Source: Candidatus Micrarchaeota archaeon (GTDB taxonomy: Archaea > Micrarchaeota > Micrarchaeia > Anstonellales > Anstonellaceae). Taken from it: a DNA stretch of 64,000 bases. Positions 8,284 to 23,369 of the stretch are shown here, one piece after another (position 1 is the stretch's first letter; each line of letters starts with the position of its first letter). The position numbers were made by a program, and so were the translations under genes. The notes under the pieces were generated by a model. That model had not been told where the DNA came from, searched no databases, and worked only from the letters and a program-made list of their open reading frames with translations. The stretch spans positions 7,484 to 71,483 of the forward strand of contig CAYMOY010000001.1 of assembly GCA_964392435.1 (NCBI GenBank), given 5' to 3'.

Positions 8284-9945
8284 ATGGCAAAGAATCTAGA
8301 AGGACAACAGGTAATGGTTCTCCCCGAGGGGAGCAACCGCGTGCTTGGGCGGGACGCGCAGCGCATAAACATAGCCGTGGCTTACGCGGTTGCAAACATC
8401 GTGCGCACCACGCTTGGGCCAAAGGGCATGGACAAGATGCTGGTTTCCGAGCTTGGCGACATTGTGATAACAAACGACGGGGCGACCATCCTTGAGGAGA
8501 TGAATGTCGAGCACCCGGCGGCAAAGATAATGGTGGAAATTGCCAAGACGCAGGACAAGGAGGTCGGCGATGGCACCACCACCTCTGTCATGCTCGCAGG
8601 GATGCTTCTGAAGAAGGCGGGCGACCTTCTGGACCAGGACATACACGCCTCCACCATAGTGAAGGGCTACGACCTGGCTTCAAAGAAGACAAATGAGTTT
8701 CTGAACAAGATAGCCACCAAAGTGTCCATAAGCGACAAGGCAATCCTGGAGAAAATCGCATCCATTGCGATGGGCTCCAAGTCAATAGGCGTGGGCACCA
8801 ACAAGGATGCGCTTGCAAAGCTGGTGGTCACCGCCGTCACGCAGGTGGCGGAGCTGAAGAACGGCGCCTACTTCGTGGACGACGAGCTTGTCAAGATTGA
8901 GAAAAAGGCGGGCGGGGACATCAACGACACCGCGCTCATACAGGGTGTGCTTGTCGACAAGGAGATAGTCCACCCGGGCATGCCGAAAAACATCAAGAAC
9001 GGGAAGATTGCCCTTCTGGACTGCGCCCTTGAGATAGAGAAGACCGAAATCGACGCAAAGATAGAGATAACCTCGCCAGACCAGATGCAGGCTTTCCTTG
9101 GGCAGGAGGAAAAGATGCTTCGTGACATGGTGGACAAGATAGCGGCAACAGGGGCGAACGTGGTCTTCTGCCAAAAAGGCATTGACGATGTCGCGCAGCA
9201 CTTTTTGAACAAGAAGGGAATCTCAGCAGTGCGCCGCGTGAAGAAGTCGGACATGGAAAAGCTCGCCCGCGCTACAGGTGGCAAGATAGCCACCACGCTG
9301 GATGACCTGTCAGCAAAGGACCTCGGCTTTGCAGGCGATGTGAACGAGAAGTCAATTGCCGGCGAGAAGATGGTCTTCGTGGAAAACTGCAAGGACGCCA
9401 AGTCGGTGACAATATTCGTGCGCGCCTCCACGGACCACGTGGTCTCGGAAGGCGAGCGGGCGATAACCGACGCGATTGGCGCGGTTTCCTCGGCAATAGA
9501 GGACGGCAGGTACGTGACAGGCGGAGGCTCCACTGAAATCGAGCTTTCCATACAGCTTGGCAAGTACGCAACCGAAATCGGAGGAAGGGAGCAGCTTGCC
9601 ATACAGGCATTCGCAGAGGCGCTGGAGACAGTGCCGCGCACGCTTGCGGAAAACGCGGGCATGGACGCGATTGACGCGCTTGTCAGCTTGCGCTCCAAGC
9701 ACAAGAAGGAGGGCGGGGAGCACTTCGGCGTGGACGTTTACGGCGGGCAGGTTTCCGACATGAAGGCAATCGGGGTGTTCGAGCCACTCAAGGTGAAAAC
9801 ACAGGCAATCGCCAGCGCCTACGAGGCAGCGAAGATGCTGCTGCGCATTGACGACATGATTGCCTCCAAAGGAAAGAGCGGCGGAATGCCTCCTGGCGCA
9901 GGCGGCCCTGGCGGCATGGGCGGCGGCATGGGCGGGGACTACTAA
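8284..9945 (+). CDS. ths: Thermosome (group II chaperonin) subunit
   Basis: 553 aa; [24 protein letters not shown] motifs; C-terminal GGM repeat tail [21 protein letters not shown]. Confidence 0.92.
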
Positions 9946-9962
9946 GGCTTTTTTCTTTTTTT
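9920..9962 (+). repeat. Direct repeat copy 1 (thermosome 3' end + T-rich terminator), matches 11321-11362
   Basis: gcggcggcatgggcggggactactaaggcttttttcttttt identical 42 nt at both sites. Confidence 0.8.
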
Positions 9963-10214: not shown

Positions 10215-10805
10215 ATGGACAATGCATTCGGCAGAAAATACAAGCGGGTGCTGGAGATACTCCCAGATGTTGCGGAGTGCGCAGGGGAAAAACTGATCCT
10301 GGTGGGCGGGACCGCCCTTGCCCTCTTCCATTTGAAACATCGCGTCAGCGTAGATTTGGATTTCGTGCCTGCCGGCGGCAACGACATCAGGCTAAAGGAA
10401 GAGCTCAAAGGCTGTATGTCAAAGAGAGGCTACCGGACCTCTCCTGGGCGCTTCAAAAACCAGTTCGTGGTGCAGTTTGAGGACACCAGCATAAAAGTGG
10501 AGATTTTCATCCCAGACAGGAAAATCAAGCGCGTCGAAGAGCACGAATTTTGCGCCAGAAAGATACGGGTGGCTTCCTGCGAGGACATTTTTCAGATGAA
10601 AATTGCCGCCTATAAGGACAGGAGAGAGGCGCGCGACCTGTTTGACATATTCTGCATACTTCAGGCCCGCGGGCGGGATTTTGGCATGGTGAAGAAACTA
10701 TTATCCGGCGGCATGCCGAAAAATATCGGCGACCTGGAGATTATGGCGCTTAACCGGTCTGATGCGACTGGATTGCGGAAGGTGATTCTTGATGCTTCTT
10801 CCTAA
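10215..10805 (+). CDS. Nucleotidyltransferase-fold protein (AbiEii/DUF1814- or MNT-like toxin/antitoxin-type NTase)
   Basis: Pol-beta NTase motif LILVGGTALALFHLKHRVSVDLDF (hG[GS]...DxD). Confidence 0.55.
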   Translation: MDNAFGRKYKRVLEILPDVAECAGEKLILVGGTALALFHLKHRVSVDLDFVPAGGNDIRLKEELKGCMSKRGYRTSPGRFKNQFVVQFEDTSIKVEIFIPDRKIKRVEEHEFCARKIRVASCEDIFQMKIAAYKDRREARDLFDIFCILQARGRDFGMVKKLLSGGMPKNIGDLEIMALNRSDATGLRKVILDASS

Positions 10806-11346
10806 GCAGGCAATCAGTTTCCGGTCTCTTTTCGCCCAGGGCTTTGCCAAAACAGAAATCTCATCAATGTCCGCTTCTCTCAAGCTGTTTCCCTCCCCTT
10901 TCAAGGGGATTTATTATGTGCCTTTGGAGGAGGAAAGGAAAGGCGGGTTCATCGAAAAGCCGCTTGCGGCGCTATCCCAGGCAATTCGCATTTTCCTGGG
11001 AAATAGCAATTTTTATTTCAGCTGCCAGACCGCTGAGGAGGCGCTCGGATTTGACTGGCAGCCCTCGGGCAGCGTGCATGTGGTCAATGAGAGGCTTTCC
11101 AGGCGGATAAACCTGAACCGAAGGATTGAGGCAAACCGTGCAAAAGGCAGCTGGCGCTCAAGGAAAATTGCGAAGCTGCTTTCATTTTACGGGACCGAGA
11201 TAGTGTTCCATCGCGGCAGCATTGAACGCGCCAGGACAAAACAGATGCCTTACGGGCAATTCGCGCGCCTGTCGCAAATAAAAAAAGACAGGAAAAGGTT
11301 CAGGGAAATCAAGGGAAACAGCGGCGGCATGGGCGGGGACTACTAA
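10789..11346 (+). CDS. Hypothetical partner protein of the NTase; C-terminal residues NSGGMGGDY are encoded by the duplicated thermosome tail
   Basis: Overlaps upstream gene by 17 nt; ORF terminates with the same stop codon context as ths. Confidence 0.4.
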   Translation: MMLLPKQAISFRSLFAQGFAKTEISSMSASLKLFPSPFKGIYYVPLEEERKGGFIEKPLAALSQAIRIFLGNSNFYFSCQTAEEALGFDWQPSGSVHVVNERLSRRINLNRRIEANRAKGSWRSRKIAKLLSFYGTEIVFHRGSIERARTKQMPYGQFARLSQIKKDRKRFREIKGNSGGMGGDY

Positions 11347-11362
11347 GGCTTTTTTCTTTTTT
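11321..11362 (+). repeat. Direct repeat copy 2 (duplicate of thermosome 3' end), right boundary of inserted cassette
   Basis: Identical to 9920-9961. Confidence 0.8.
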
Positions 11363-11420
11363 ACTTTTTTTGTTTCTTCCTTTTCTTTCTATAGTGCTTG
11401 TCATGCGCTTTTCCATGCAC

Positions 11421-12449
11421 TCACTTCTCATCCGGCGCACACAGCCTTTCCGATATTTTCTTTCCTGAAGGAAGGTATTTTGAGAGGCTATGCGGCAGCT
11501 GCGCGGTCATCCTATAAGTGGAAACACCGATTGGTTTTTTTACCTCTTTCAGCGCATACTCCACAATCGTCCTGTCCTTGCTCTTGCAGATGATTATTCC
11601 AATCGAAGGCTTTTCGCCCCCCATTCTCACCTTGTCATCAAGCACCGAGAGATAGAATTGCATCTTTCCCGCGTACTCAGGCATGAACTCCCCGACTTTT
11701 AACTCTATTGCCACGAGGCATTTCAACTTCCTGTGGTAAAGCAGCAGGTCAACAAAAAACTCGCTGCCGCCGACTTCAAGCCGGAACTGGTTCCCAATAT
11801 AGCAGAAACTGCCGCCCATTTCCACAAGAAAGCTTCTCACCCGTTTCATGAGCGCGCCTTTCAGTTCTTTTTCAGAATGCTCCCCTCCCAGCTCAAGAAA
11901 ATCAAACGTGTACTCATCTTTGACTGCCAGCTTTGCCTGCCCTTTGTACCTGGCTGGCAAGGCTTTATCGAAATTAGTCTGGTTTGTGAGATATTTCTCA
12001 TACGACCTATTCTCAATCTGGTGGATAAGCACGCTTTTCGTCCAGCCAAACTTCCGGATCATTTTGATATAGAACTCCCTTTCAAGGTCGTTTTTGCACT
12101 TCTCCATGACAACTAGGTTCTTAGCCCAGCTGATTTCTCGCACCAATGGTGCGAGTTTTGCATTTTTGCAGTAGCTTTGGTAGAAATTCCGCATTCTCCA
12201 AAGACTGGCGGGGGAAAAGCCATGCACACCGGGATACTCCTTCTGCAGATCAAACGCAAGCCTTTCTACAATCGCCTTGCCCCAGCTGAACTTTTCCTGC
12301 TTCTCGGCTATTTCCCTGCCGATGTCCCAGTAAAGATTAACGAGCTCCTTATTGACTGCCTTCAGCGCGGAATACTGCGCCTCCCGTATCCTGTTCTTAA
12401 TCTCAATTACAAAATCCCTGTAGCCAGATTCCTTTACGAGCGCACTCAT
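11421..12449 (-). CDS. PDDEXK-nuclease family protein (DUF1016/YhcG-like)
   Basis: N-terminal ...AVNKELVNLYWDIGREI... and C-terminal LVAIELKVGEFMPEYAGKMQFYLSVLD match DUF1016; start at internal Met (12449) of ORF 11421..12500. Confidence 0.6.
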   Translation of the reverse strand: MSALVKESGYRDFVIEIKNRIREAQYSALKAVNKELVNLYWDIGREIAEKQEKFSWGKAIVERLAFDLQKEYPGVHGFSPASLWRMRNFYQSYCKNAKLAPLVREISWAKNLVVMEKCKNDLEREFYIKMIRKFGWTKSVLIHQIENRSYEKYLTNQTNFDKALPARYKGQAKLAVKDEYTFDFLELGGEHSEKELKGALMKRVRSFLVEMGGSFCYIGNQFRLEVGGSEFFVDLLLYHRKLKCLVAIELKVGEFMPEYAGKMQFYLSVLDDKVRMGGEKPSIGIIICKSKDRTIVEYALKEVKKPIGVSTYRMTAQLPHSLSKYLPSGKKISERLCAPDEK

Positions 12450-12524
12450 TTCAACCACATCGCGCAAATGTGGGCAGTTCCACGCATTAAAAACATTCAC
12501 AGGGTAGCATGCCAGTAGTTTTTC

Positions 12525-13409
12525 TCACTTCCTTTCCCATCCCCTTGCCATCTCCTTTTCCAGGAATCTCACCAGGGGCGCCACCCCGCGATTGGTCTCG
12601 TAAGCGTGAAGCGCAGAATAGTAGGCGTGCCTTTTCCGGTAAAAGATGACCACGGGCGGCAGGCCGTTTTTCAGCAGTATGTTGTTCATCAGCAGCCTTC
12701 CCACCCTGCTCGTGCCTTCACGGAAAGGGCGGATGTTCTCGAACTGGCAATGCACCAGTGCGGCAAGCACCAGCGGATGGCGCCTTTCCCTGTTGTTATT
12801 ATACCATTCCGCCAGCCCAAAAAGCAAGCCCTTCACCTGGCTCCAGGGGGCGCCCCTGTGCACAATCTCGCCCTGCCGGTTCCTTACCACCAAGTCGACG
12901 CGCCTCAGTTTCCCTGCAAACGGCTCGGAATTCCTGAAAGCCGCCTTGTGCAGCTCCAGCATCAAAGGAACGGACAGGTGCGTTTTTGTCTCAGCCAGCA
13001 TCCTTGTTGCTCTTGCAACCCCGTAGGTTTCGGCAATGTCCTCCTTTGGCTTGTCGGGCCAGAGGTTGTTCTTCAATATCTCGCCTGCCTCCCTCCGGGT
13101 AATGCTTGAGCCTTCGATGGCATTGCTGTTGTAGGTGAAATCCACCACAAATTCCTCCCACTTCTTTTTTCCCACCCTTGCCCTCATTGCCCTTGCCTCC
13201 ACGCTGCCAAATGCGATTTCCCACTGCCCCATCAGCTTTTCCCTGCCCTCAAGCTGCTTTCTGGCAGCCTCGTGTTTGAGCACCAGCTCCTCCCTTCCCA
13301 AATTGGTGCCCAGGTAAACCCTGTCTTTCCTCACCTTCTGCCCCTGCCGGTACGAGCGGGTCAGGTAGAATTTCCTCATTTTCCTTTTTCCCCTTGCCTC
13401 AATGTACAT
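12525..13409 (-). CDS. Fic/DOC family protein with degenerate active-site motif (RPFREGTSRVGR instead of HPFx[DE]GNGRxxR)
   Basis: FTYNSNAIEGSSIT N-terminal Fic motif; core motif has His->Arg and GNG->GTS; TATA-like TTAATAAAT ~25 bp upstream of ATG 13409. Confidence 0.65.
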   Translation of the reverse strand: MYIEARGKRKMRKFYLTRSYRQGQKVRKDRVYLGTNLGREELVLKHEAARKQLEGREKLMGQWEIAFGSVEARAMRARVGKKKWEEFVVDFTYNSNAIEGSSITRREAGEILKNNLWPDKPKEDIAETYGVARATRMLAETKTHLSVPLMLELHKAAFRNSEPFAGKLRRVDLVVRNRQGEIVHRGAPWSQVKGLLFGLAEWYNNNRERRHPLVLAALVHCQFENIRPFREGTSRVGRLLMNNILLKNGLPPVVIFYRKRHAYYSALHAYETNRGVAPLVRFLEKEMARGWERK

Positions 13410-13735
13410 GCACCATCTTGGGTGCCTACAATTTATTAATGCTTTCCAAAAGGTGACCACAAAACAGGCAAATCTTCCTCTGCTCCCCCCTTTTTTCCCA
13501 TCTGCCCCCGCCGCAAGAAAGCGCATCCGGCCCTTCCAAAAGCTGAACCGGCGCATCCTTGGCTCTTTGCGCGCGCAAGGGGGGCGAAGAAATGCTTAAA
13601 AACATTACTTTCGAAGCGTCTGAACGTGGAAGGCAGAATACAGGGCAGTTCAGACTTTTCCAGATGCGAGCACGAGCCCAGCCCCCACAAGGCAATAATT
13701 TTCAGCCAGCGTCAGTACTAATCGAGGTGAGCCAT

Positions 13736-16700
13736 ATGGTGTCCCAAAACACAAAGCAAACGTCCGCGCGCATCTTTTCCGCGATTCTATTCGTAGCGCT
13801 TTTCGCCGGGACGGTTGCTGCCGCGTCAAGTGTAACATCGGTTTCAGCAACTACTGCAAACGGTTCCTATAAGGCCGGTTCCTTCATAAATATAACAGTA
13901 ACATTCAACGAATCGACCTATTATATCGGCGGTATTGGAAATCCCTATTTGCTTTTGAATGTGACTACTGGTGGAAGAAATGTGTCCATATTCTCTCCAG
14001 CTCCTGGAATGGGCTCATTGATATTTAACTTCAACTATACAGTTCAGGAAGGCGACACTTCTGCAGTTTTAGACTATATGAACAATGCATCTCTCACCGG
14101 TAGCATTAAGACCATGGAGGACTCTTCGTCATCCATCTTGACTCTTCCAAATCCTGGTGCGGCAGGTTCGCTTGGCGCGAACAAGAATATTACAATCGAC
14201 ACGTCCATCCCAGGAATCACATCAATCAGCACCAACACAACCGACGGCTCTTACAAGGCAGGGACCAAAATCTACCTGTTCGTTGTCTACAACGACTCTG
14301 TAACAGTGTCAGGCGGAACGCCGACAATCGACCTTAACTCAGCAGGAACTGCCCAGTATGTGGGCGGCTCAGGCTCCACCAACCTCTCCTTCCTATACAC
14401 TGTCGCTGCAGGCGAGAACTCTGCAGGGCTGGTCTACAACACGACAACTTCTCTTAACCTCAACGGCGCCACAATCAGGGACGCTGCAGGCAACGACGCG
14501 GTCGAAACCCTGCCAGCAACCGCGACATTCACAGGGGCACACGCAATTGTCATCGACACCATACCCCCGGTAATCACCGGCCTTGCGCTTTCCCCAAGCA
14601 GCGGCTACGCCAAGATAGGTGATGTAATCCACCTGGCGATAACAGCTGACGCGGCAGGCTACACCAACACATCAATAACGGTCAACGGCATCCCGGCAGA
14701 GGATTTCGAGGACCTGACCGGCGGCGCCTACGGAGTTAACTACACAATCGCAACCGGCCACAGCGACAGGGCAGCAGGGTTAGTCCCTGCAAGCGTCACC
14801 CTGTCCGACGCCGCTGGCAACTCAGTGACGTATTCCACAGTGGGTGCGAACACACTTGAAATAATCGCAAATGCGCCAATAGTCTCCTCAAACGCAATTG
14901 TCACTCCCGCGGGCTCCTACAAGGCTGCGGATGTTTTGAGCTTCTCGGTAACCTACAACAAGACAGTGGTGGTGACCGGCACGCCCAGAATAAAGCTCAA
15001 TGTTGTGGGAGCTGCCACCAGGTATGCGAATTTTGTCTCAGGCAACGATTCGGCCATTCTGGTGTTCAATTACACGGTGGTTGACGGAGACAACTCGGCT
15101 GACCTTGGGGCTGAGGACACAAGCTCGCTTGATCTGAACAGCGGCACAATAAAGGACCTGGCCGGCAACAACGCGGTCAACACGCTTGATGACGACTTCA
15201 CAGGAAGCAGCGTGGTAGTTGACACGTCCATCCCTGGAATAACGTCAATCAGCACCAACACAACCGACGGCTCTTACAAGGCAGGGACCAAAATCTACCT
15301 GTTCGTTGTCTACAACGACTCTGTAACAGTGTCAGGCGGAACGCCGACAATCGACCTTAACTCAGCAGGAACTGCCCAGTATGTGGGCGGCTCAGGCTCC
15401 ACCAACCTCTCCTTCCTATACACTGTCGCTGCAGGCGAGAACTCTGCAGGGCTGGTCTACAACACGACAACTTCTCTTAACCTCAACGGCGCCACAATCA
15501 GGGACGCTGCAGGCAACGACGCGGTCGAAACCCTGCCAGCAACCGCGACATTCACAGGGGCACACGCAATTGTCATCGACACCATACCCCCGGTAATCAC
15601 CGGCCTTGCGCTTTCCCCAAGCAGCGGCTACGCCAAGATAGGTGATGTAATCCACCTGGCGATAACAGCTGACGCGGCAGGCTACACCAACACATCAATA
15701 ACGGTCAACGGCATCCCGGCAGAGGATTTCGAGGACCTGACCGGCGGCGCCTACGGAGTTAACTACACAATCGCAACCGGCCACAGCGACAGGGCAGCAG
15801 GGTTAGTCCCTGCAAGCGTCACCCTGTCCGACGCCGCTGGCAACTCAGTGACGTATTCCACAGTGGGTGCGAACACACTTGAAATAATCGCACATCTGCC
15901 TGTGGTTTCTTCAGTTAGCTCGGATGGTCGGACATTCAATACTGGGGGCAGTTCAACCTCTATAATAACAGTTACTTTCAACAAGAGCATGAGTGTTGCC
16001 CCCTCAATATCTGTCAACAGCTTAAGTTTAACAGTGAATGACTGTGGCGACTCGAATGCAACGACTTTCTGCATTGCCTACCAAATACCGAGCTCATACG
16101 CAGGCAGTATGACTATACAGATTTCCGGGGCAAAGGACCTGGCAGGAAACACGATGGCGGCGGACAACTCGCACACTTTCGATGTTGACACCGTCCTGCC
16201 CACAGTGACCGCATCCTCGCCGCAGGGAGGCACTTCCGCATCCTCGCCCATTACAATTAACGTGACCACCAGCATAGCGGCATACTGCAAGTATGACACG
16301 CAGGACCGGTCGTATGCCACAATGGCATACAACTTCAGCAACGGGCAGGGAACAACCGCGCACACAAGCAGCGTGGCACTCGCCTCGCAGGGGCTCAACA
16401 ACATCTACGTGGCTTGCGCGAGCATGAACGGAAGCGCAATGACCTCATCTGTGAGGCTGTACACCACATATGACACCACCAGCAACTTCAACTACACCAA
16501 GCAGCTCAACCTTGGGTGGAACGACATGCCTCTGCCCAGAGTGGTTCTGGAGGACCTCGACTCGTTCTCTGACGGGAACTACAGCGTGGTGAACGTGCTT
16601 GAGACAAAGGGCGGGATAGGCGGCAGCTACGACTACCTGTACTACCGCAACGGCACCTCCTGCTCGTCGCAGAACGGGAGCTGCTGGCTGTTCTACGACC

Positions 16701-16798
16701 CGTCACTTGTGACTGGCACCCTGTCTGAGTTCAACGACTGGGACAACCTGCCATACTGGATACACATGAACGCCAGCGACAGGCTGGAGCTCAACTAG
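13736..16798 (+). CDS. Large secreted surface (S-layer-like) glycoprotein with repeated Ig-like domains and internal perfect DNA repeats
   Basis: SD GAGGTGA then MVSQNTKQTSARIFSAILFVALFAGTVAAA signal; >60 N-x-S/T sequons; repeated ~110-aa SYKAG...LNGATIRDAAGNDAVETL modules. Confidence 0.75.
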   Translation: MVSQNTKQTSARIFSAILFVALFAGTVAAASSVTSVSATTANGSYKAGSFINITVTFNESTYYIGGIGNPYLLLNVTTGGRNVSIFSPAPGMGSLIFNFNYTVQEGDTSAVLDYMNNASLTGSIKTMEDSSSSILTLPNPGAAGSLGANKNITIDTSIPGITSISTNTTDGSYKAGTKIYLFVVYNDSVTVSGGTPTIDLNSAGTAQYVGGSGSTNLSFLYTVAAGENSAGLVYNTTTSLNLNGATIRDAAGNDAVETLPATATFTGAHAIVIDTIPPVITGLALSPSSGYAKIGDVIHLAITADAAGYTNTSITVNGIPAEDFEDLTGGAYGVNYTIATGHSDRAAGLVPASVTLSDAAGNSVTYSTVGANTLEIIANAPIVSSNAIVTPAGSYKAADVLSFSVTYNKTVVVTGTPRIKLNVVGAATRYANFVSGNDSAILVFNYTVVDGDNSADLGAEDTSSLDLNSGTIKDLAGNNAVNTLDDDFTGSSVVVDTSIPGITSISTNTTDGSYKAGTKIYLFVVYNDSVTVSGGTPTIDLNSAGTAQYVGGSGSTNLSFLYTVAAGENSAGLVYNTTTSLNLNGATIRDAAGNDAVETLPATATFTGAHAIVIDTIPPVITGLALSPSSGYAKIGDVIHLAITADAAGYTNTSITVNGIPAEDFEDLTGGAYGVNYTIATGHSDRAAGLVPASVTLSDAAGNSVTYSTVGANTLEIIAHLPVVSSVSSDGRTFNTGGSSTSIITVTFNKSMSVAPSISVNSLSLTVNDCGDSNATTFCIAYQIPSSYAGSMTIQISGAKDLAGNTMAADNSHTFDVDTVLPTVTASSPQGGTSASSPITINVTTSIAAYCKYDTQDRSYATMAYNFSNGQGTTAHTSSVALASQGLNNIYVACASMNGSAMTSSVRLYTTYDTTSNFNYTKQLNLGWNDMPLPRVVLEDLDSFSDGNYSVVNVLETKGGIGGSYDYLYYRNGTSCSSQNGSCWLFYDPSLVTGTLSEFNDWDNLPYWIHMNASDRLELN
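14222..14869 (+). repeat. 648-bp perfect direct repeat, copy 1 (inside surface protein gene)
   Basis: Identical to 15245-15892 (offset 1023 bp); ORF track shows identical spurious ORFs 14358..14573 and 15381..15596. Confidence 0.9.
15245..15892 (+). repeat. 648-bp perfect direct repeat, copy 2
   Basis: See copy 1; flanking 25 nt nearly identical with 3 mismatches. Confidence 0.9.
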
Positions 16799-16855
16799 CC
16801 CCCATTTTTTATTTTTTTCATTTTTTTGTTTTTCAAGCTTTAAACGAGGTGTACT

Positions 16856-18445
16856 ATGGTCGCAAAAAACGCGCTGCTCTTCGCAGCATTGCTTGCAAGC
16901 TCCATGTTGTCTGCCGGTATGGGGAGTTGGTACGGGCAGGTGCTCATCAACGGCACGCTGGCAGCTGACGGCACCCTGGTTTGCGCCTATGTGAACGGTG
17001 TTGAAAATTCCAGGGCTTCAGTTGGCAGTTGCCCAGGCAGCCATTATTGCATGACTGTGATAGGCAACACCGGTGACAACGTAACTTTCAAAGTTTTCTG
17101 CGACAGCAATTATCCAGCAAAAGAAGGGGTGCAGGCATGGTCTGCAAGCCCCCCGACCAACATACTAAACCTCACTGTTGATTATGCCTCGGTTGAGGGC
17201 AACGCTTCGGATATAGTCACAAACGGCACCGGCACCCTCAACATAACGATAAACGGCACCGTCCCGGGCAACACCACCTATTATAACGACGTAGAGACCG
17301 TGACCATCTCTTCCCCAAGCGGAGCCATCCTGTCGTTTGGCTACAATTTCAGCAATTCGTTCCTTAATCTTTCCACCATCAGCATAGCAAACGGAACAAG
17401 CGGCGGCGCCTCCTACATATCGGTCAGCGGGGTGAACAACAGCGGCGGGCAGTTCGGCACCAAGACGCTCGTGGTCTACAACACGAGTCCATCATACAAC
17501 TCCATCTGCGTGAAAGACGCTGAAGGGGTGACATACCTGAACATAACCGCCGCCTGCACCGACGCAAATGAGGTGCAGGTGCCCTGCACCGGCACGGCAA
17601 GCGGAATAACCTGCACGAAGTCAGGGACCACCCTCACCATTTCAGGGCTGGTGCACTCCGCAGCCATGCAATTCAACATAGTCACTCCAACGCCAACTCC
17701 CTCGCCTTCAGGCAGCTCATCAAGCGGAGGCGGCTCGGTCGGCGGAGGAGCGGCTGGGGCAACCTCCACCAAGCTGTCCACCGATTATGTTGTGGACATA
17801 GGCACGGCAAACTGCACAGTCAGCCTGAAGCGCGAGCTTGTTTCAGGCAACGTTTCGGTGCTAACAACCAATGTTGAGAACAAAGGGGGAAGCGAGTGCA
17901 CCATGGCGGACTTTGTCTTTTCAGACACCATACCTGACAGCTTCGCATCGATGAACGAGATAAACTTCACCCCGGCATACACCTCGCGCGAGGGCTGGAA
18001 GGTGGCGTTCACTTTCCCGACATTCGTGGGCGGCGAATCCAAGTCAATAACCTACTCGGTTGGCAAGCGGGTGCCCCCCTCAAGGGTGAATAACTTCACC
18101 ACTGTGGAGATGTCTGCGGAGAAGAAGTTGCCTGCGCCCAAGGTCAATGCCCCAACAACAACGCCCAAGGAAGAGCCTGAAGTTGCGCCTCCGGCGCCAG
18201 GTTCCGACAAGGACATACACGGCTGCATAGGCTCGGCAGGCTATGCCTGGTGCGAGGCAAAGCAAAAGTGCCTGCGCGCCTGGGAGGAGGAGTGCGTTGC
18301 GCCGGCAAAGGCCGCCCCGCAGGAGCAGGCGAAATCTGACAACACCGCGCAGATGGCGCTCATAGCTGCAGTCATTCTTGCGGGCATTGCCATAGTCGGC
18401 GCAGGAGTTTACTTTTTGGCAAAGAGGAAGCACAAAAGCAGCTAA
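16856..18445 (+). CDS. Secreted surface glycoprotein with Pro/Thr/Ser/Gly linker and C-terminal transmembrane anchor
   Basis: Signal peptide MVAKNALLFAALLASSMLSAG; many NxS/T sequons; PTPTPSPSGSSSSGGG linker; C-terminal MALIAAVILAGIAIVGAGVYFLAKRKHKSS. Confidence 0.7.
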   Translation: MVAKNALLFAALLASSMLSAGMGSWYGQVLINGTLAADGTLVCAYVNGVENSRASVGSCPGSHYCMTVIGNTGDNVTFKVFCDSNYPAKEGVQAWSASPPTNILNLTVDYASVEGNASDIVTNGTGTLNITINGTVPGNTTYYNDVETVTISSPSGAILSFGYNFSNSFLNLSTISIANGTSGGASYISVSGVNNSGGQFGTKTLVVYNTSPSYNSICVKDAEGVTYLNITAACTDANEVQVPCTGTASGITCTKSGTTLTISGLVHSAAMQFNIVTPTPTPSPSGSSSSGGGSVGGGAAGATSTKLSTDYVVDIGTANCTVSLKRELVSGNVSVLTTNVENKGGSECTMADFVFSDTIPDSFASMNEINFTPAYTSREGWKVAFTFPTFVGGESKSITYSVGKRVPPSRVNNFTTVEMSAEKKLPAPKVNAPTTTPKEEPEVAPPAPGSDKDIHGCIGSAGYAWCEAKQKCLRAWEEECVAPAKAAPQEQAKSDNTAQMALIAAVILAGIAIVGAGVYFLAKRKHKSS

Positions 18446-18486: not shown

Positions 18487-19599
18487 GTGGTGGATATGCA
18501 AAAAACAATACTGATTTTGGCGCTTGCCTGCCTTATTGCCCCTGCTTGGGCTTCATTCCCCTATGAAAATTTTGTCCCTGACAACATGAGCTACTCAATA
18601 GAGAATTTCACCCACCAGGGAAAGGTCCATCAGGCGCTGCTGGTGCAATCGCAGCTTTACGCCTTTCTTATGCCCCATAATGATTCCACTCTCAAGCCCG
18701 TAGGCGAAATTGGGCTGATAAAAAGCCTTCTTCACAGCTACCATCTCTCCACCGGATACTCCCCGGACACAGTGCAGAACCTGCAGAAGGTGCATGCTGG
18801 GATAGACAACATAAGGAATGCCCGCAAAGAGGGCGAGGCGAAATGCCGGACATTGCTTGGCACAGACCGCCTTCCCTGCGAAAGCTTTGAGACGTGCCTG
18901 CAGGCGTGCTATTCGGTCACCTCGTTCTGCCAGCCAGTCGCCTTGGGGGCTGGCAGGCCATTCATAAACACCGTGTGGGAGTTTGAGAACAACAGCCGCA
19001 TGCTGGATGAGGCGTATGATGCAGAAGCTGCCGCCTACGAGGAGGTCTCAAAGGGAGCAACCTATGAAAACCTGAAGGCATACCTCTCCTCGATAGAGCA
19101 GATAAACAGGCGGGCGACCAAGGCTTCCTCCAGCCAGCTTTACGATTCATACTCATACTGCTTCTCGCCAGACTACTCCATGCCGGCGCTCACCAACCTG
19201 CAGCTTCTGGCGCAAAAGAGCTACTCCAACTTCTCCCGCTTCTTTGAGCTTGATTTTGACTCGCAGGTCATATTGAACCTGACAAATTATGGGCTGAAGA
19301 AAATGGAGTACCTTCGGGCATCCGCCCAGGCAAGCGCTGGCGGGGGGGAACAGAACCAGAGCGTTGGGGGCAGCGAGCTTGCCGAAAAATACCGTTTCCT
19401 CGAAATCACCAGGGGGCTTTTCAAGCTGGGCCCCTACAACCAGTCCTGGGCAAAAAAAGCCGAGCCTGCTCAACCACAGGATGAGGGGCAGCATTTCAAC
19501 ATCCAGACCCTGATGATAGCCTCTCTTGTCTCATTTGGGGCAATCGTGGTGGCAATCCTGGTTTTTTTCAAGATGCGCGATGCCCGGGACAGGCTCTAG
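18487..19599 (+). CDS. Secreted protein with C-terminal TM anchor (surface protein, unknown function)
   Basis: Signal peptide ILILALACLIAPAWA; C-terminal LMIASLVSFGAIVVAILVFF TM; NxS/T sequons. Confidence 0.55.
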   Translation: MVDMQKTILILALACLIAPAWASFPYENFVPDNMSYSIENFTHQGKVHQALLVQSQLYAFLMPHNDSTLKPVGEIGLIKSLLHSYHLSTGYSPDTVQNLQKVHAGIDNIRNARKEGEAKCRTLLGTDRLPCESFETCLQACYSVTSFCQPVALGAGRPFINTVWEFENNSRMLDEAYDAEAAAYEEVSKGATYENLKAYLSSIEQINRRATKASSSQLYDSYSYCFSPDYSMPALTNLQLLAQKSYSNFSRFFELDFDSQVILNLTNYGLKKMEYLRASAQASAGGGEQNQSVGGSELAEKYRFLEITRGLFKLGPYNQSWAKKAEPAQPQDEGQHFNIQTLMIASLVSFGAIVVAILVFFKMRDARDRL

Positions 19600-19672
19600 C
19601 CCCGCCTGCGAACTATTATTAAATTTTTATACTATTATATAGAATGTATAATAGTCATTCAGGGGTGCAATC

Positions 19673-21028
19673 ATGGCTGAAAAGAAAAAAATAACGCCTG
19701 CTAAAGGGAAGCTGGGGGTGCTCACTCCCGGCCTTGGCGCGGTCTCCACCACTTTCATAGCGGGCGTCATGCTTGCGAGGAAAAACGGCATGCTTCCTGC
19801 GGGGAGCCTCACGCAGATGCAGACGATACGCCTTGGGAAGCGCGACGAGAACCGCTCGCCTTTGATTAAGGATTTCGTGCCCCTCGCCTCCCTTTCCGAC
19901 CTGGAATTCGCGGCATGGGACATCTTCCCTGACAACGCCTACGAAGCCGCGAGGAAAGCCGGCGTGCTTTCCGCCGAGCACCTCGATTTGGTGAAAGGCG
20001 AGCTTGAAAAAATCAAGCCCATGAAGGCGGTATTCGACCGCAATTTCATCAAGAACATCAACGGGCCGAACGTGAAAACCGGCGCGAACAAGATGGAGCT
20101 TGCACAACAGGTAAGAGACGACATCCGCCGCTTCAAGAAGGAGAAGAACCTCTCGCGCATGGTCGCGGTCTGGTGCGCAAGCACCGAGACTTATACCGAG
20201 CAGCAGCCCGTGCACGCATCGCTTGTTGCATTCGAAGAGGGGCTTGCCAAAAGCGACCCCGCGATAGCCCCCTCGATGATTTACGCGTACGCCGCTCTGA
20301 TGGAAGGTGTGCCGTATGTGAACGGCTCCCCGCAACTGACACTGGACATTCCCGCGCTTGAGGAGCTTGCAAGAAAGCAGGGTCTTCCGATTGCAGGAAA
20401 GGACTTCAAGACAGGGCAGACCCTGGTAAAAACCACGATTGCGCCCATGTTCAAGACAAGAATGCTTGGCGTCAAGGGCTGGTTTTCCACGAACATACTG
20501 GGCAACCGCGACGGGCTTGTGCTTGACGACGCCGGCTCATTCAAGAGCAAGGAAATGAGCAAGAAGTCATCGCTGGACTTCATATTCCAGCCCGCAATGT
20601 ACCCCGACTTGTACAAGGACATGTACCACAAGGTAAGAATCGAGTACTATCCCCCGAAGGGCGACGACAAGGAGGGCTGGGACAACATAGACATATTCGG
20701 CTGGATGGGCTACCCCATGCAGATAAAAATCAACTTCCTGTGCAAGGACAGCATCCTCGCCGCGCCGATTGTCCTTGACTTGGCGCTGTTCATGGATTTG
20801 GCGCAAAGGGCCGGCATGGTGGGCATGCAGGAGTGGCTGTCGTTTTACTTCAAGGCGCCCATGCACGCGCCGACAGTTTCTCCGGAACACGATATCTCCA
20901 TCCAGCACATGAAGTTGAAAAACACGCTTAGGTACATCATGGGCGAGGATTTGATTACCCATCTGGGCGTGGAATACTACGACTATTGGGGCAAGGGGAA
21001 GCAGGCAGCCGAAGGGAAAGGCACTTAA
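19673..21028 (+). CDS. ino1: myo-Inositol-1-phosphate synthase
   Basis: Motifs VAVWCASTETY (LWTANTERY-like), NGSPQLT (NGSPQNT), STNILGNRDG (SYNHLGNNDG); 451 aa. Confidence 0.85.
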   Translation: MAEKKKITPAKGKLGVLTPGLGAVSTTFIAGVMLARKNGMLPAGSLTQMQTIRLGKRDENRSPLIKDFVPLASLSDLEFAAWDIFPDNAYEAARKAGVLSAEHLDLVKGELEKIKPMKAVFDRNFIKNINGPNVKTGANKMELAQQVRDDIRRFKKEKNLSRMVAVWCASTETYTEQQPVHASLVAFEEGLAKSDPAIAPSMIYAYAALMEGVPYVNGSPQLTLDIPALEELARKQGLPIAGKDFKTGQTLVKTTIAPMFKTRMLGVKGWFSTNILGNRDGLVLDDAGSFKSKEMSKKSSLDFIFQPAMYPDLYKDMYHKVRIEYYPPKGDDKEGWDNIDIFGWMGYPMQIKINFLCKDSILAAPIVLDLALFMDLAQRAGMVGMQEWLSFYFKAPMHAPTVSPEHDISIQHMKLKNTLRYIMGEDLITHLGVEYYDYWGKGKQAAEGKGT

Positions 21029-21061
21029 ACCTGTGTCTGCACAAATTCCTGTGTGATTTAA

Positions 21062-21367
21062 ATGGCAAATATAACACTTTCAATACCCGACGCAATCCGC
21101 GTGCAGATGGACCAGCACTCCGAGATAAAGTGGAGCGAAGTCGCAAAGAGCGCCATCGCGGCAAAGGTAATCGAGCTTCACAAGCTTTCCATCCTCAAAA
21201 AATACATCGACAAAGAACCCATTTCCGAGGCGGACTGGGCGTGGATGGACCAGCACGATTGGCATCCTGTGGACGAACTACCAATGAAAAAATCATTCAT
21301 TGCCAGCCTGAAGGCTTCGCGCAAGGAAAAGTCCAGTCCGACTACCATCGACGCGCTTTTCAAGTGA
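21062..21367 (+). CDS. Putative ribbon-helix-helix antitoxin
   Basis: N-terminal NITLSIPDAIRVQMDQHSEIKWSEVAKSAIAAKV fits beta-strand + two helices of RHH; directly upstream of RelE-like gene. Confidence 0.45.
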   Translation: MANITLSIPDAIRVQMDQHSEIKWSEVAKSAIAAKVIELHKLSILKKYIDKEPISEADWAWMDQHDWHPVDELPMKKSFIASLKASRKEKSSPTTIDALFK

Positions 21368-21371
21368 GCCG

Positions 21372-21632
21372 ATGTATTCCCTTGAAAAAACAGACCACTG
21401 CAAGCTGCAAATACGCAAGCTTACTTCCAAAAACAAGCGGTTGGAAAATGCCCTGCGGAGCAAAATTGATGAAATACTGGAAAACCCCTATCATTTCAAG
21501 CCATTGGGCAACGTTATGGCTGGCATGCGCAGGGTCCACATAATGGGGTGTTTTGTGCTGACTTATGACATTGACGAGCCAAGCGGGAAAGTTATCCTGA
21601 AGCGCTTTTCCCACCACGACGAGGCTTATTGA
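21372..21632 (+). CDS. RelE/ParE-family toxin
   Basis: 86 aa; C-terminal GMRRVHIMGCFVLTYDIDEPSGKVILKRFSHHDEAY matches RelE/YoeB pattern (R..g.yRiiY.id...v.il.i.hR.d.Y); 4-nt overlap with next gene. Confidence 0.6.
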   Translation: MYSLEKTDHCKLQIRKLTSKNKRLENALRSKIDEILENPYHFKPLGNVMAGMRRVHIMGCFVLTYDIDEPSGKVILKRFSHHDEAY

Positions 21633-22237
21633 TGGCACTGAAAAAAATCCCAGTTCTATTATCCATTCAAAAGTCAGCGGGGCGCATCTTTGCCGCGCTC
21701 CCCTTCTCCGCGAACCAGATAACGGTTTCCTCGGTCGTTCTTGCGGCAATCGGCTTTTTCTTTTCCCTCTCGCAGCAGCTCTATCCCTCGCTGTTCTTCT
21801 TCCTGCTTTCCGCGGCGGCTGACGCGCTTGACGGGGCGGTCGCACGCGCAAAGAAGCAGGTGTCCGCCCGCGGGGCGTACATAGACGGCATAACTGACAG
21901 GCTGGTGGAATTCCTCTTCATCCTCTCGCTTCTTGCCTATCCCCTGCCCTCATTCATCATTTCAGCCCCGCTGCTGCTGATAATCATCCTCTTCTTCGGC
22001 TCGGCAATGACTTCCTTTGCAACCGCCTACGCGGAGCACAGGCATGTTGCCGACGCGAAGAAGATAGCCGCCCAGCCCGGCATCCTCCCGCGTGCGGAAC
22101 GCATTATCCTGCTCGCGCTGGCGATGATAACGATTCCCGCCAATCCGGCTTTCGCGTCAGGCGTGCTGTTCGCAACAGCCGCGCTGTGCATGGTGACATT
22201 CGCGCAGAGGTTTTGCTACTTTGCCGCTGATGATTAG
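21629..22237 (+). CDS. CDP-alcohol phosphatidyltransferase (probable archaetidylinositol-phosphate synthase)
   Basis: DGAVARAKKQVSARGAYIDGITD = D-G-x2-A-R-x8-G-x3-D-x3-D motif; multi-TM; adjacent to ino1. Confidence 0.8.
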   Translation: MMALKKIPVLLSIQKSAGRIFAALPFSANQITVSSVVLAAIGFFFSLSQQLYPSLFFFLLSAAADALDGAVARAKKQVSARGAYIDGITDRLVEFLFILSLLAYPLPSFIISAPLLLIIILFFGSAMTSFATAYAEHRHVADAKKIAAQPGILPRAERIILLALAMITIPANPAFASGVLFATAALCMVTFAQRFCYFAADD

Positions 22238-22635
22238 GCGAAGTAATTGAATTCTTCCCTGTTTTTGTCCTTTATCTCCGTGTTATCCTTTACTGGCTTC
22301 ATGAAAAAGGCAGTCAGGAAATTCAAGTCTACCTGGCTTTGGGGGAGCCTATTGCTTCGCGCCTGCTCGCCCACGAGCCGGGCAAGCTCCTTTTCCACTC
22401 TGGCTGCAAAATCGCCAAGCCCGTTATTTCGAAGCGCCCCTAGGAACTCTTTTCTTTCAGACTCCACCTTAAGGTCGTATTGGGTGGTCGTCTCCACCTG
22501 CGTATTTTTGGAAAATACGCTTATTGTTCCAGTCATCTTGCTAACATCCACTCTCACAGTTGTTATGGAATCCGGCGTCTCTTTCCGGACTGATTGGTCC
22601 GTTGTCTTGAGGGCCACCAGCTGCATAAGCATCAT
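22234..22635 (-). CDS. Hypothetical protein
   Basis: 133 aa ORF translationally coupled (ATGA overlap) to upstream minus-strand gene. Confidence 0.35.
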   Translation of the reverse strand: MMLMQLVALKTTDQSVRKETPDSITTVRVDVSKMTGTISVFSKNTQVETTTQYDLKVESERKEFLGALRNNGLGDFAARVEKELARLVGEQARSNRLPQSQVDLNFLTAFFMKPVKDNTEIKDKNREEFNYFA

Positions 22636-23369
22636 AATTTAGCACCATAAGTCGGGTCAACTCTCACGCTAGTCGATCCATCTGGGGAAAAATGCACCAG
22701 ATAGCCCAGTATTGCCGGGTCCCGCATGTCCGCGCCACCTTCTGCGGGCGTGAATTTCGGGTTTTGCAGGTCTGGAAAGTTGCTATCGGAGTCCTTATTC
22801 ACGTACAATTTGCCCCCCTTCCCGGTAATAATCATGGAAGAAGTCGGCGTAGTTGCGAAGATTGCTCCGTTTGGGGCAATAAAAATCTGCTCCGGGCCAA
22901 TGAAGATCCGGCTTGAGTCATCAGCGTATATGAATGACACCCTGGCTGTTCTGTTCTTGGCATCCGGGGCAACCCTCATTATCCCATCTGTGAAAACAAG
23001 ATAAGCGCTCTTTCCTATGCCCTCGACTTGGGCGTAAATCACCAGCCTGATGCCGCTGAGGGTCAGCTTCGCAAGCCAGCTGTCTTTCAATTGCCTGGCA
23101 AAATCAACCTCTAAGTCGTAGTGCTGCCCCTCGAACTCAAAGCCTTTTAGGCGCAACACCCCGTCTTTCAGGCTGTCAATGTCGAAATATTTCTTCCCGC
23201 GGACCTCAAAGCCTGTTTGCTGCCAGACCAACCCGCTCGGGTCGCGATCCCTTGTCTGCGCCAGGGTGCCGCTTTGATTTTGCGCAATCGAGAATACCGC
23301 GGCCATTATGGTCGCAGCGTAAATAGGATGCCTCAACGCGAACCTGCCCGCCCTCAGGGCCTCCTTCAT
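22632..23369 (-). CDS. Hypothetical secreted protein
   Basis: Signal peptide from internal Met MKEALRAGRFALRHPIYAATIMAAVFSIAQN; ORF track extends to 23696. Confidence 0.45.
   Translation of the reverse strand: MKEALRAGRFALRHPIYAATIMAAVFSIAQNQSGTLAQTRDRDPSGLVWQQTGFEVRGKKYFDIDSLKDGVLRLKGFEFEGQHYDLEVDFARQLKDSWLAKLTLSGIRLVIYAQVEGIGKSAYLVFTDGIMRVAPDAKNRTARVSFIYADDSSRIFIGPEQIFIAPNGAIFATTPTSSMIITGKGGKLYVNKDSDSNFPDLQNPKFTPAEGGADMRDPAILGYLVHFSPDGSTSVRVDPTYGAKL

Follow-up and report, generated by a model that had tools for sequence, protein, structure and literature searches.

How does a single gene come to hold two long stretches of identical DNA with divergent sequence in between? The question is raised by a locus in a 64,000-nucleotide stretch of contig CAYMOY010000001.1 (positions 7,484 to 71,483, forward strand) of the Candidatus Micrarchaeota archaeon assembly GCA_964392435.1; this whole stretch of 64 kb is called the window here, and all coordinates refer to it unless stated otherwise. 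An open reading frame (ORF) at 13736-16798 encodes a protein of 1020 aa, and within it, positions 14222-14869 are identical to positions 15245-15892 at 648 of 648 nucleotides. An earlier note on this DNA, made from the letters alone, had described two perfect 648-bp direct repeats inside a 1020-aa surface-protein gene, and that description is borne out. The answer we favour, with reasonable though not firm confidence, is that the middle array of immunoglobulin (Ig)-like modules in this protein evolves by intragenic homologous recombination, and that an older duplicate of a two-module cassette was made identical to its partner by very recent gene conversion.

The identity itself is not in doubt at the level of the deposited sequence. 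By both direct comparison and a repeat search, the 648-nt match is the longest exact run at an offset of 1023 nt; beyond it, sequences this far apart match at about 25%, the level expected by chance. The next longest exact direct repeats anywhere in the 64 kb are 42, 28 and 24 nt, while inverted repeats of at least 24 nt are absent from the window. A chance origin of a 648-nt repeat is excluded against a runner-up of only 42 nt. Both copies are in frame and start at a codon boundary, occupying codons 163-378 and 504-719 of the ORF. The parts of the gene, with the evidence for each, are laid out as follows.

13736-16798, plus strand: the gene for the 1020-aa secreted, sequon-rich, multi-module surface protein, in the order SP-A1-A2-B-A3-A2'-B'-C-D-E, where SP is the signal peptide (from the ORF, the ribosome-binding site and the start of the homolog)
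13736-13831, plus strand: predicted signal peptide, MVSQNTKQTSARIFSAILFVALFAGTVAAASS, with a basic n-region, a hydrophobic stretch and an AAA-S site, kept in the homolog P0002
13832-14206, plus strand: module A1, a divergent A-type Ig-like module with 36-38% aa and 43-46% nt identity to A2 and A3 and saturated third positions
14198-14221, plus strand: left flank of copy 1, encoding DTSIPGIT, homologous to 15221-15244 with 3 synonymous differences
14222-14869, plus strand: copy 1 of the perfect repeat, with A2 at 14207-14560 and B at 14561-14872 (648/648 identity, AlphaFold2 and Foldseek)
14870-15244, plus strand: spacer, made of module A3 (14873-15226) and the left flank of copy 2 (15221-15244), with chance identity at offset 1023
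15245-15892, plus strand: copy 2 of the perfect repeat (A2' and B'), 648/648 identical to copy 1
15896-16192, plus strand: module C, a bacterial Ig-like module (Pfam Big_5, PF13205, 23.8 bits vs a cut-off of 23.6), 62% identical to C of P0002
16193-16480, plus strand: module D, a predicted Ig-like beta-sandwich (AlphaFold2), itself repeated in other family members, many homologs matching the query in multiple stretches
16481-16795, plus strand: domain E, the conserved extreme C-terminus with the motifs SxQNGSCW and WDNLPYW, found by homolog search and proposed to be a docking domain

The repeat unit follows the domain structure of the protein. It corresponds to the whole of A2 and B and is bounded by the linker motifs ..IDT/SIP.. 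and ..EIIA. Each copy had been taken to encode one Ig-like module; in fact, each encodes two, A2 (118 aa) and B (104 aa). From an alignment of 29 sequences, AlphaFold2 models A2-B as two all-beta domains, each a beta-sandwich, with a predicted local distance difference test (pLDDT) score of 87.7. The Foldseek matches of this model in the PDB are all tandem Ig-like structures (the S-layer protein SbsC, Fab fragments, filamin and butyrophilins), at E values of only ~1e-3. Module C alone passes a Pfam gathering threshold, marginally and for Big_5, while modules A, B, D and domain E have no Pfam or NCBIfam family match. A-like modules occur in more than 1000 proteins, both bacterial and archaeal, and some of these are annotated as Big_5, Big_12 or SWM_repeat. 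Within the gene, A3 and A2 are 48% identical in amino acids and 56% in nucleotides. Leaving the perfect pair aside, the A modules range among themselves from 36 to 48% aa and from 43 to 56% nt identity, and only 22-38% of their third positions are identical. By these distances, the other A modules are ancient paralogs.

The two copies are interspersed. Between them lie 375 nt of divergent sequence holding module A3, such that the period is 1023 nt and the array amounts to ~1.6 copies. Tandem Repeats Finder reports no array, and since the identical units do not stand head to tail, a simple tandem repeat is rejected. The claim of a direct repeat pair thus holds for the identity and the orientation of the copies, with the correction that A3 intervenes. 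The ends of the repeat are unlike each other. On the left, the adjoining 24 nt (14198-14221 vs 15221-15244) are homologous with 3 differences, or 87.5% identity. These differences (CCA/CCT, ATC/ATA and ACA/ACG) are all synonymous third-position changes in a flank that encodes DTSIPGIT, and therefore the repeat at the protein level is 224 aa, compared with the 216 codons of the exact nucleotide core. On the right, the repeat ends abruptly, and this end coincides with the end of module B. The earlier note had counted 3 mismatches in the flanking sequence, which is the right number; all of them fall in the 24 nt to the left of the core.

The contrast between flank and core is the main evidence on the history of the repeat. 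Differing codons number 3 of 8 in the flank and 0 of 216 in the core (Fisher p=3e-5), and the probability that 3 random differences would all land in one terminal 24 nt of a 672-nt unit is ~1e-4. A single young duplication is expected to show uniform near-zero divergence, which is unlike what is observed. The gradient from 100% to 87.5% to no homology fits a gene-conversion tract, in which the inner part of an older duplicate has recently been homogenised. The order of the modules argues in the same direction. If the repeat is written as R, one unequal crossover cannot turn A1-R-A3-C into A1-R-A3-R-C without also duplicating A3, which would favour conversion of a pre-existing (A-A-B)x2 arrangement. 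The proposed sequence of events would begin with an older duplicated A2-B cassette. Very recent non-reciprocal recombination between misaligned copies would then have produced the 648-nt identity. The left limit of the conversion tract would lie 24 nt inside the duplicated unit, and its right limit would be the end of module B. The direction and the timing of the conversion are inferred. The suggestion that perfect identity meant either very recent duplication or ongoing gene conversion had picked the right class of process, and the flank/core contrast together with the mosaic repeats found in relatives favours conversion of an older duplicate.

The closest full-length homolog is P0002, encoded at locus L001. 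It is 45% identical and shares the signal peptide and the C-D-E end with the window protein (62% in C and 78% in D+E). The arrays in between are of different sizes: P0002 has 12 modules (10 A and 2 B) vs 6 in the window protein (4 A and 2 B). The modules of P0002 form families with 68-90% identity within the protein. Between its two B modules the identity is 87%, against 43-44% to the B of the window protein, a pattern that would fit either concerted evolution or independent duplications. Module-by-module orthology between the two proteins is unassignable, as the identities are flat at 33-54%. The longest exact intragenic repeat in the P0002 gene is 92 nt. A second giant surface gene was seen at L001, two genes downstream of the P0002 gene (11766-17858 of that locus, after the partner gene described below). 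It encodes more than 2031 aa before running off the contig, and it contains repeats with a period of 510 nt, 77-92% identity and exact tracts of up to 152 nt; it appears to be another array under homogenisation.

A scan of metagenomes with the conserved C-terminus as seed found 12 further loci (L003-L014), most of which lack exact repeats of at least 25 nt. Longer tracts are present at two other loci: L018 (P0274) has a 242-nt exact tract at a spacing of 927, and L017 (P0355) has exact tracts of 208 nt at a spacing of 1983 and of 302 nt at a spacing of 297. At L018, at L017 with the spacing of 1983 and at L001, the exact tracts lie within longer stretches of 70-97% identity and end abruptly on one side. 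The window gene has the same mosaic pattern. The 224-aa exact repeat of the window protein is the longest among 52 domain-E proteins, the next being 99, 88, 50 and 34 aa. Among A-module homologs (n=119), exact repeats of at least 30 aa are found in 47 and of at least 100 aa in 3. Because short-read assembly selects against such repeats, these frequencies are probably lower bounds. No allele from the same species was found by the metagenome contig scan, which returned only an unrelated Bacteroidales match, or by exact-protein look-ups. Those look-ups gave no match for the NCBI protein P0001, the 529-aa partner, the long Fic ORF, the thermosome, YhcG from ATG 12449 or the C-terminal fragment expected on a contig right of copy 2 (15863-16798); Logan contigs came only from the inositol-phosphate synthase and the shorter Fic call.

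The alternative that survives best is a single very recent segmental duplication, in which A2-B was copied and placed behind A3 where no duplicate had stood before, conversion is not going on, and the copies are identical simply because they are young. It accounts readily for 0 differences in 648 nt, for an abrupt right end exactly at a module boundary and for there being two copies only. One of the relatives also offers a likely precedent, in that the 302-nt exact tract at L017 has a left flank at chance level and a right flank of ~70% identity for ~100 nt, and so resembles a fresh tandem duplication. What makes this history unlikely for the window gene is that 3 synonymous sites differ in a homologous 24-nt left flank, which would hardly be expected of a young copy whose core is clean, and that the order A1-R-A3-R-C would be out of reach of one unequal crossover for the reason given above.

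We also considered that the repeat is real while its perfect identity or its copy number is an effect of assembly, through de Bruijn collapse or polishing. The copies might then be slightly different, or there might be at least 3 R-A3 units, or alleles might be mixed. The length of the repeat, 648 nt, exceeds typical short reads, and similar trouble is on record: short-read misassembly of identical Ig-like extenders has been described (bioRxiv 10.1101/2025.09.30.679566), as has imprecise repeat number (PMC13106166). The locus could be compared with an independent assembly, since Logan provides a k=31 assembly of run SRR12133403 from which contigs were recovered by exact-protein look-up. Two Logan contigs are 100% identical to the window, L015 over 19467-22648 and L016 over 11333-14251. 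The right end of L016, at 14251, is exactly 30 nt (k-1) inside the 648-nt repeat, and its other end, at 11333, is exactly 30 nt inside a 42-nt repeat at 11321-11362. When one sequence has two contexts, the break in a k=31 de Bruijn graph falls at k-1. Therefore, the left edge of the repeat is a true branch point in the reads. The warning that this is a likely site of assembly collapse was apt, as the short-k assembly does break at the repeat edge and leaves the graph unresolved there.

There is also evidence against the assembly explanation. A path A1-R-A3-R-C would need R on both sides of A3 in real molecules, and hence at least two copies. The R-A3 loop could be traversed more than once, so that the break at the end of L016 does not fix the copy number, and neither is it proof against collapse of small differences between the copies. 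On the other hand, the deposited 518-kb contig passes straight through the locus, the reading frame and the domain boundaries are intact, and the 3 flank differences were kept apart by the assembler. Taking both sides together, we give an assembly effect only a small probability. The locus is nonetheless a caution for metagenome assembly: an independent k=31 assembly breaks exactly at the repeat, and the two copies in the deposited genome are best read as a provisional count. A last candidate, programmed diversification by the template/variable repeat pair of a diversity-generating retroelement (DGR) or by a silent-cassette system, has in its favour that DGRs are known in DPANN archaea and target surface proteins, but it is ruled out for practical purposes by the zero mismatches between copies, where DGR pairs differ at adenines, and further by a length several times that of the usual template, by both copies lying within one reading frame and by there being no reverse transcriptase among the neighbours scanned (a scan that was not window-wide).

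Several points also weigh against gene conversion of an older duplicate. The evidence is assembled sequence, so that the copy number is 2 or more. Where long copies differ slightly, a graph-based assembler can remove the differences, and the 100% may be slightly overstated. Conversion requires enough prior similarity between copies. The flat identities to P0002 leave no orthology from which the array before conversion could be rebuilt, and the gradient on the left is seen over 24 nt only. As there are just two copies, a single event that is not being repeated could also explain their identity.

The length of 1020 aa is right for this gene. The ribosome-binding site GAGGTGA is found just 5' of the ATG at 13736, and the closest homolog, P0002, begins at the same MVSQN... 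as the 1020-aa model; together these support the model. The NCBI call for the same gene, P0001, is on the 518-kb contig and is 1068 aa, starting 48 codons upstream, and it is otherwise identical to the translation from the window. P0001 contains the 216-aa unit twice, and thus the two-copy structure is part of the deposited record. The hydrophobic stretch of the signal peptide has a Kyte-Doolittle maximum of 2.18, and there is no hydrophobic or transmembrane (TM) segment downstream of it in the 1020-aa protein. N-X-S/T sequons number 33, or 3.2 per 100 aa, compared with 0.2-0.3 for the thermosome, isoleucyl-tRNA synthetase (IleRS) and P-type ATPase of the window. By these features, the protein is secreted and probably N-glycosylated. 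No LPXTG, RTX or type I secretion system (T1SS) C-terminus was found in it, and Pfam and NCBIfam matches of these kinds are likewise lacking. The earlier description as a modular Ig-like surface protein agrees with the signal peptide, the 33 sequons, the AlphaFold2 beta-sandwiches and the Ig-like Foldseek matches.

The C-terminal end of the protein is conserved, and it comes with a conserved neighbour. A query of D+E gave 321 matches at E<=1e-3 among 1.84 billion representatives. Domain E, of ~105 aa, lies no more than 18 residues from the C-terminus in 45 of 52 proteins, whose sizes run from 108 to 4231 aa. The AlphaFold2 model of D+E has a pLDDT of 94, with D an Ig-like sandwich; for E, there is no Pfam, NCBIfam or confident PDB match. 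Two genes follow on the same strand.

16856-18445, plus strand: the partner gene, encoding 529 aa with a signal peptide, 18 sequons and a C-terminal TM anchor (translation and tblastn synteny)
18487-19599, plus strand: a gene for a 370-aa protein with a signal peptide and a C-terminal TM segment, with a homolog near the cluster in L001, L004 and L005

A homolog of the 529-aa partner is directly 3' of the E-domain gene in 14 of 15 other loci by tblastn (L001, L003-L014 and L018), and L017 has no match. From this conserved gene order, we propose that E is a docking domain; it suggests that E may attach the variable array to the membrane-anchored partner. The 57-nt gap before the partner gene contains a T-rich imperfect tandem at 16803-16835 (CATTTTTTTGTTTTT x2). 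It could be an archaeal oligo-T terminator and, if so, the surface gene and the partner gene may not be co-transcribed.

Archaeal genetics makes routine use of pop-out recombination, with direct repeats a few hundred bp long. The two copies, being perfect, direct, in frame and 1023 nt apart, are a ready substrate for recombination of the RadA type. Recombination between them would delete 1023 nt (A3 and one cassette) and leave an in-frame protein of 679 aa, while unequal exchange between sister chromosomes would add an extra A3 and cassette to give 1361 aa. The length of the extracellular stalk would shift in this way in steps of 341 residues, and ongoing expansion and contraction in steps of 341 codons at the population level is a reasonable inference. 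The earlier note's claim of frequent in-frame expansion and contraction, with length variation of a surface antigen, is right in kind and for now a prediction; array length does differ between homologs (6 modules vs 12). With a module array visibly reshaped by recombination, the locus should make a good marker for strain tracking.

What such variation might be for is a more tentative matter. Micrarchaeota, like other DPANN archaea, live attached to host cells, and no part of this way of life is less well understood than their surface proteins. The 1020-aa protein may serve in attachment, and the surface gene is a candidate attachment determinant. More speculatively, and we think rather doubtfully as a complete picture, the protein may be the variable "reach" part of an undescribed Micrarchaeota attachment apparatus, in which an Ig stalk of adjustable length is docked through domain E to the downstream membrane-anchored protein, and recombination between cassettes gives stalks of 679, 1020 and 1361 aa in one population. 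If that were true, a DPANN episymbiont would be tuning its host contact on the fly by recombination. Possibly the more useful lead is the conserved association between variable arrays that have E at their end and a membrane-anchored partner.

The remainder of the window bears on the identity of the organism and on the setting of the gene. The window encodes a thermosome, an ABCE1-type protein and an archaeal RNase P RNA. Its IleRS is 71-79% identical to proteins of Candidatus Micrarchaeia, Micrarchaeota or Anstonellaceae, and two tRNA matches are long (105 and 130 nt vs a 71-position model) and probably contain introns. By these gene contents, the cell of origin is identified as a Micrarchaeota (DPANN) archaeon. 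Upstream of the surface gene, on the minus strand, are a YhcG-type PDDEXK nuclease (11421-12500) and, directly adjacent to the surface gene, a Fic/DOC protein (12525-13556), whose start is probably the ATG at 13409, as called in Logan. A Fic homolog with 71% identity also occurs at L005, ~2 kb upstream of the E-domain gene. Farther upstream, the 3' end of the thermosome gene (..GGMGGDY, stop and T-run) is present twice, as the 42-nt exact direct repeat (9920-9961 and 11321-11362). Between its copies (10215-11346) are an AbiEii toxin gene at 10215-10805 (PF08843, 7e-18) and an ORF of 185 aa that takes its last 9 codons from the duplicated thermosome tail. The arrangement suggests that a small AbiE toxin-antitoxin cassette was inserted at the 3' end of the thermosome gene and duplicated its target. 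Together with the YhcG nuclease and the Fic/DOC protein, it would make up a small accessory islet. On the other side of the surface cluster, at 20986-21600 (compared with 1596-2166 of L015), the gene calls of that identical Logan contig put an RHH_12 antitoxin and a weak ParE-type toxin between an inositol-phosphate synthase gene and a CDP-alcohol phosphatidyltransferase gene. The surface cluster would then have a second small toxin-antitoxin pair close by.

Among known systems, the two-gene layout first calls to mind the archaeal S-layers, which are anchored through co-expressed accessory proteins (bioRxiv 10.1101/2024.05.28.596244). Like the SlaA/SlaB-type layers, the locus has a large secreted, sequon-rich protein, mostly of beta-sandwich domains and without a TM segment, and downstream of its gene a smaller one whose product is anchored by a C-terminal TM segment. 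Unlike them, it has Ig arrays and no S-layer match, and family sizes of about 200 to 4200 aa suit adhesins or fibrils better than a fixed lattice. Neither sequence nor profile searches, solved S-layer proteins included, revealed homology to an S-layer family. The S-layer proteins of Micrarchaeota are, moreover, predicted to be MSTP-like tiles (bioRxiv 10.1101/2024.05.28.596244), and with no such homology the gene is unlikely to encode the S-layer protein.

The repeats themselves resemble those of two groups of bacterial adhesins. In RTX adhesins, identical repeats of 250-650 bp encode Ig-like extenders; the patterns include two dissimilar extenders as a repeated pair, one Bordetella parapertussis isolate has lost one such pair, and short-read assemblies break or mis-count the extender repeats (bioRxiv 10.1101/2025.09.30.679566). 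The likeness is in long fibrillar surface proteins made of tandem beta-sandwich modules with nucleotide-identical internal repeats. The differences here are the archaeal host, the Sec-type signal peptide, domain E in place of an RTX/T1SS C-terminus, only two copies split by a divergent module, and no sequence-family link. The streptococcal Alp/Rib proteins (alpha C, Rib, R28 and Alp1-4) have identical beta-sandwich repeats, 2 to 14 in the proteins modelled, and mosaic genes (PMC13106166). Their repeats are ~80 aa and strictly tandem, with an LPXTG wall anchor and documented repeat-number variation. In the window gene, the unit is 216-224 aa (two modules) and interspersed, there is no LPXTG, and differing module number is seen between distant homologs. 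As in surface proteins with identical domain repeats generally (RTX-adhesin extenders, Alp/Rib and SasG/Aap-like proteins), we find surface exposure, a whole in-frame beta-sandwich unit and near-100% nucleotide identity; tandem order is the feature that this gene does not share. The closest analogues are therefore the identical Ig-like extender repeats of the bacterial RTX and Alp adhesins, although the gene belongs to neither sequence family, and what it adds is not a new mechanism but an archaeal example of one that is well documented in bacteria.

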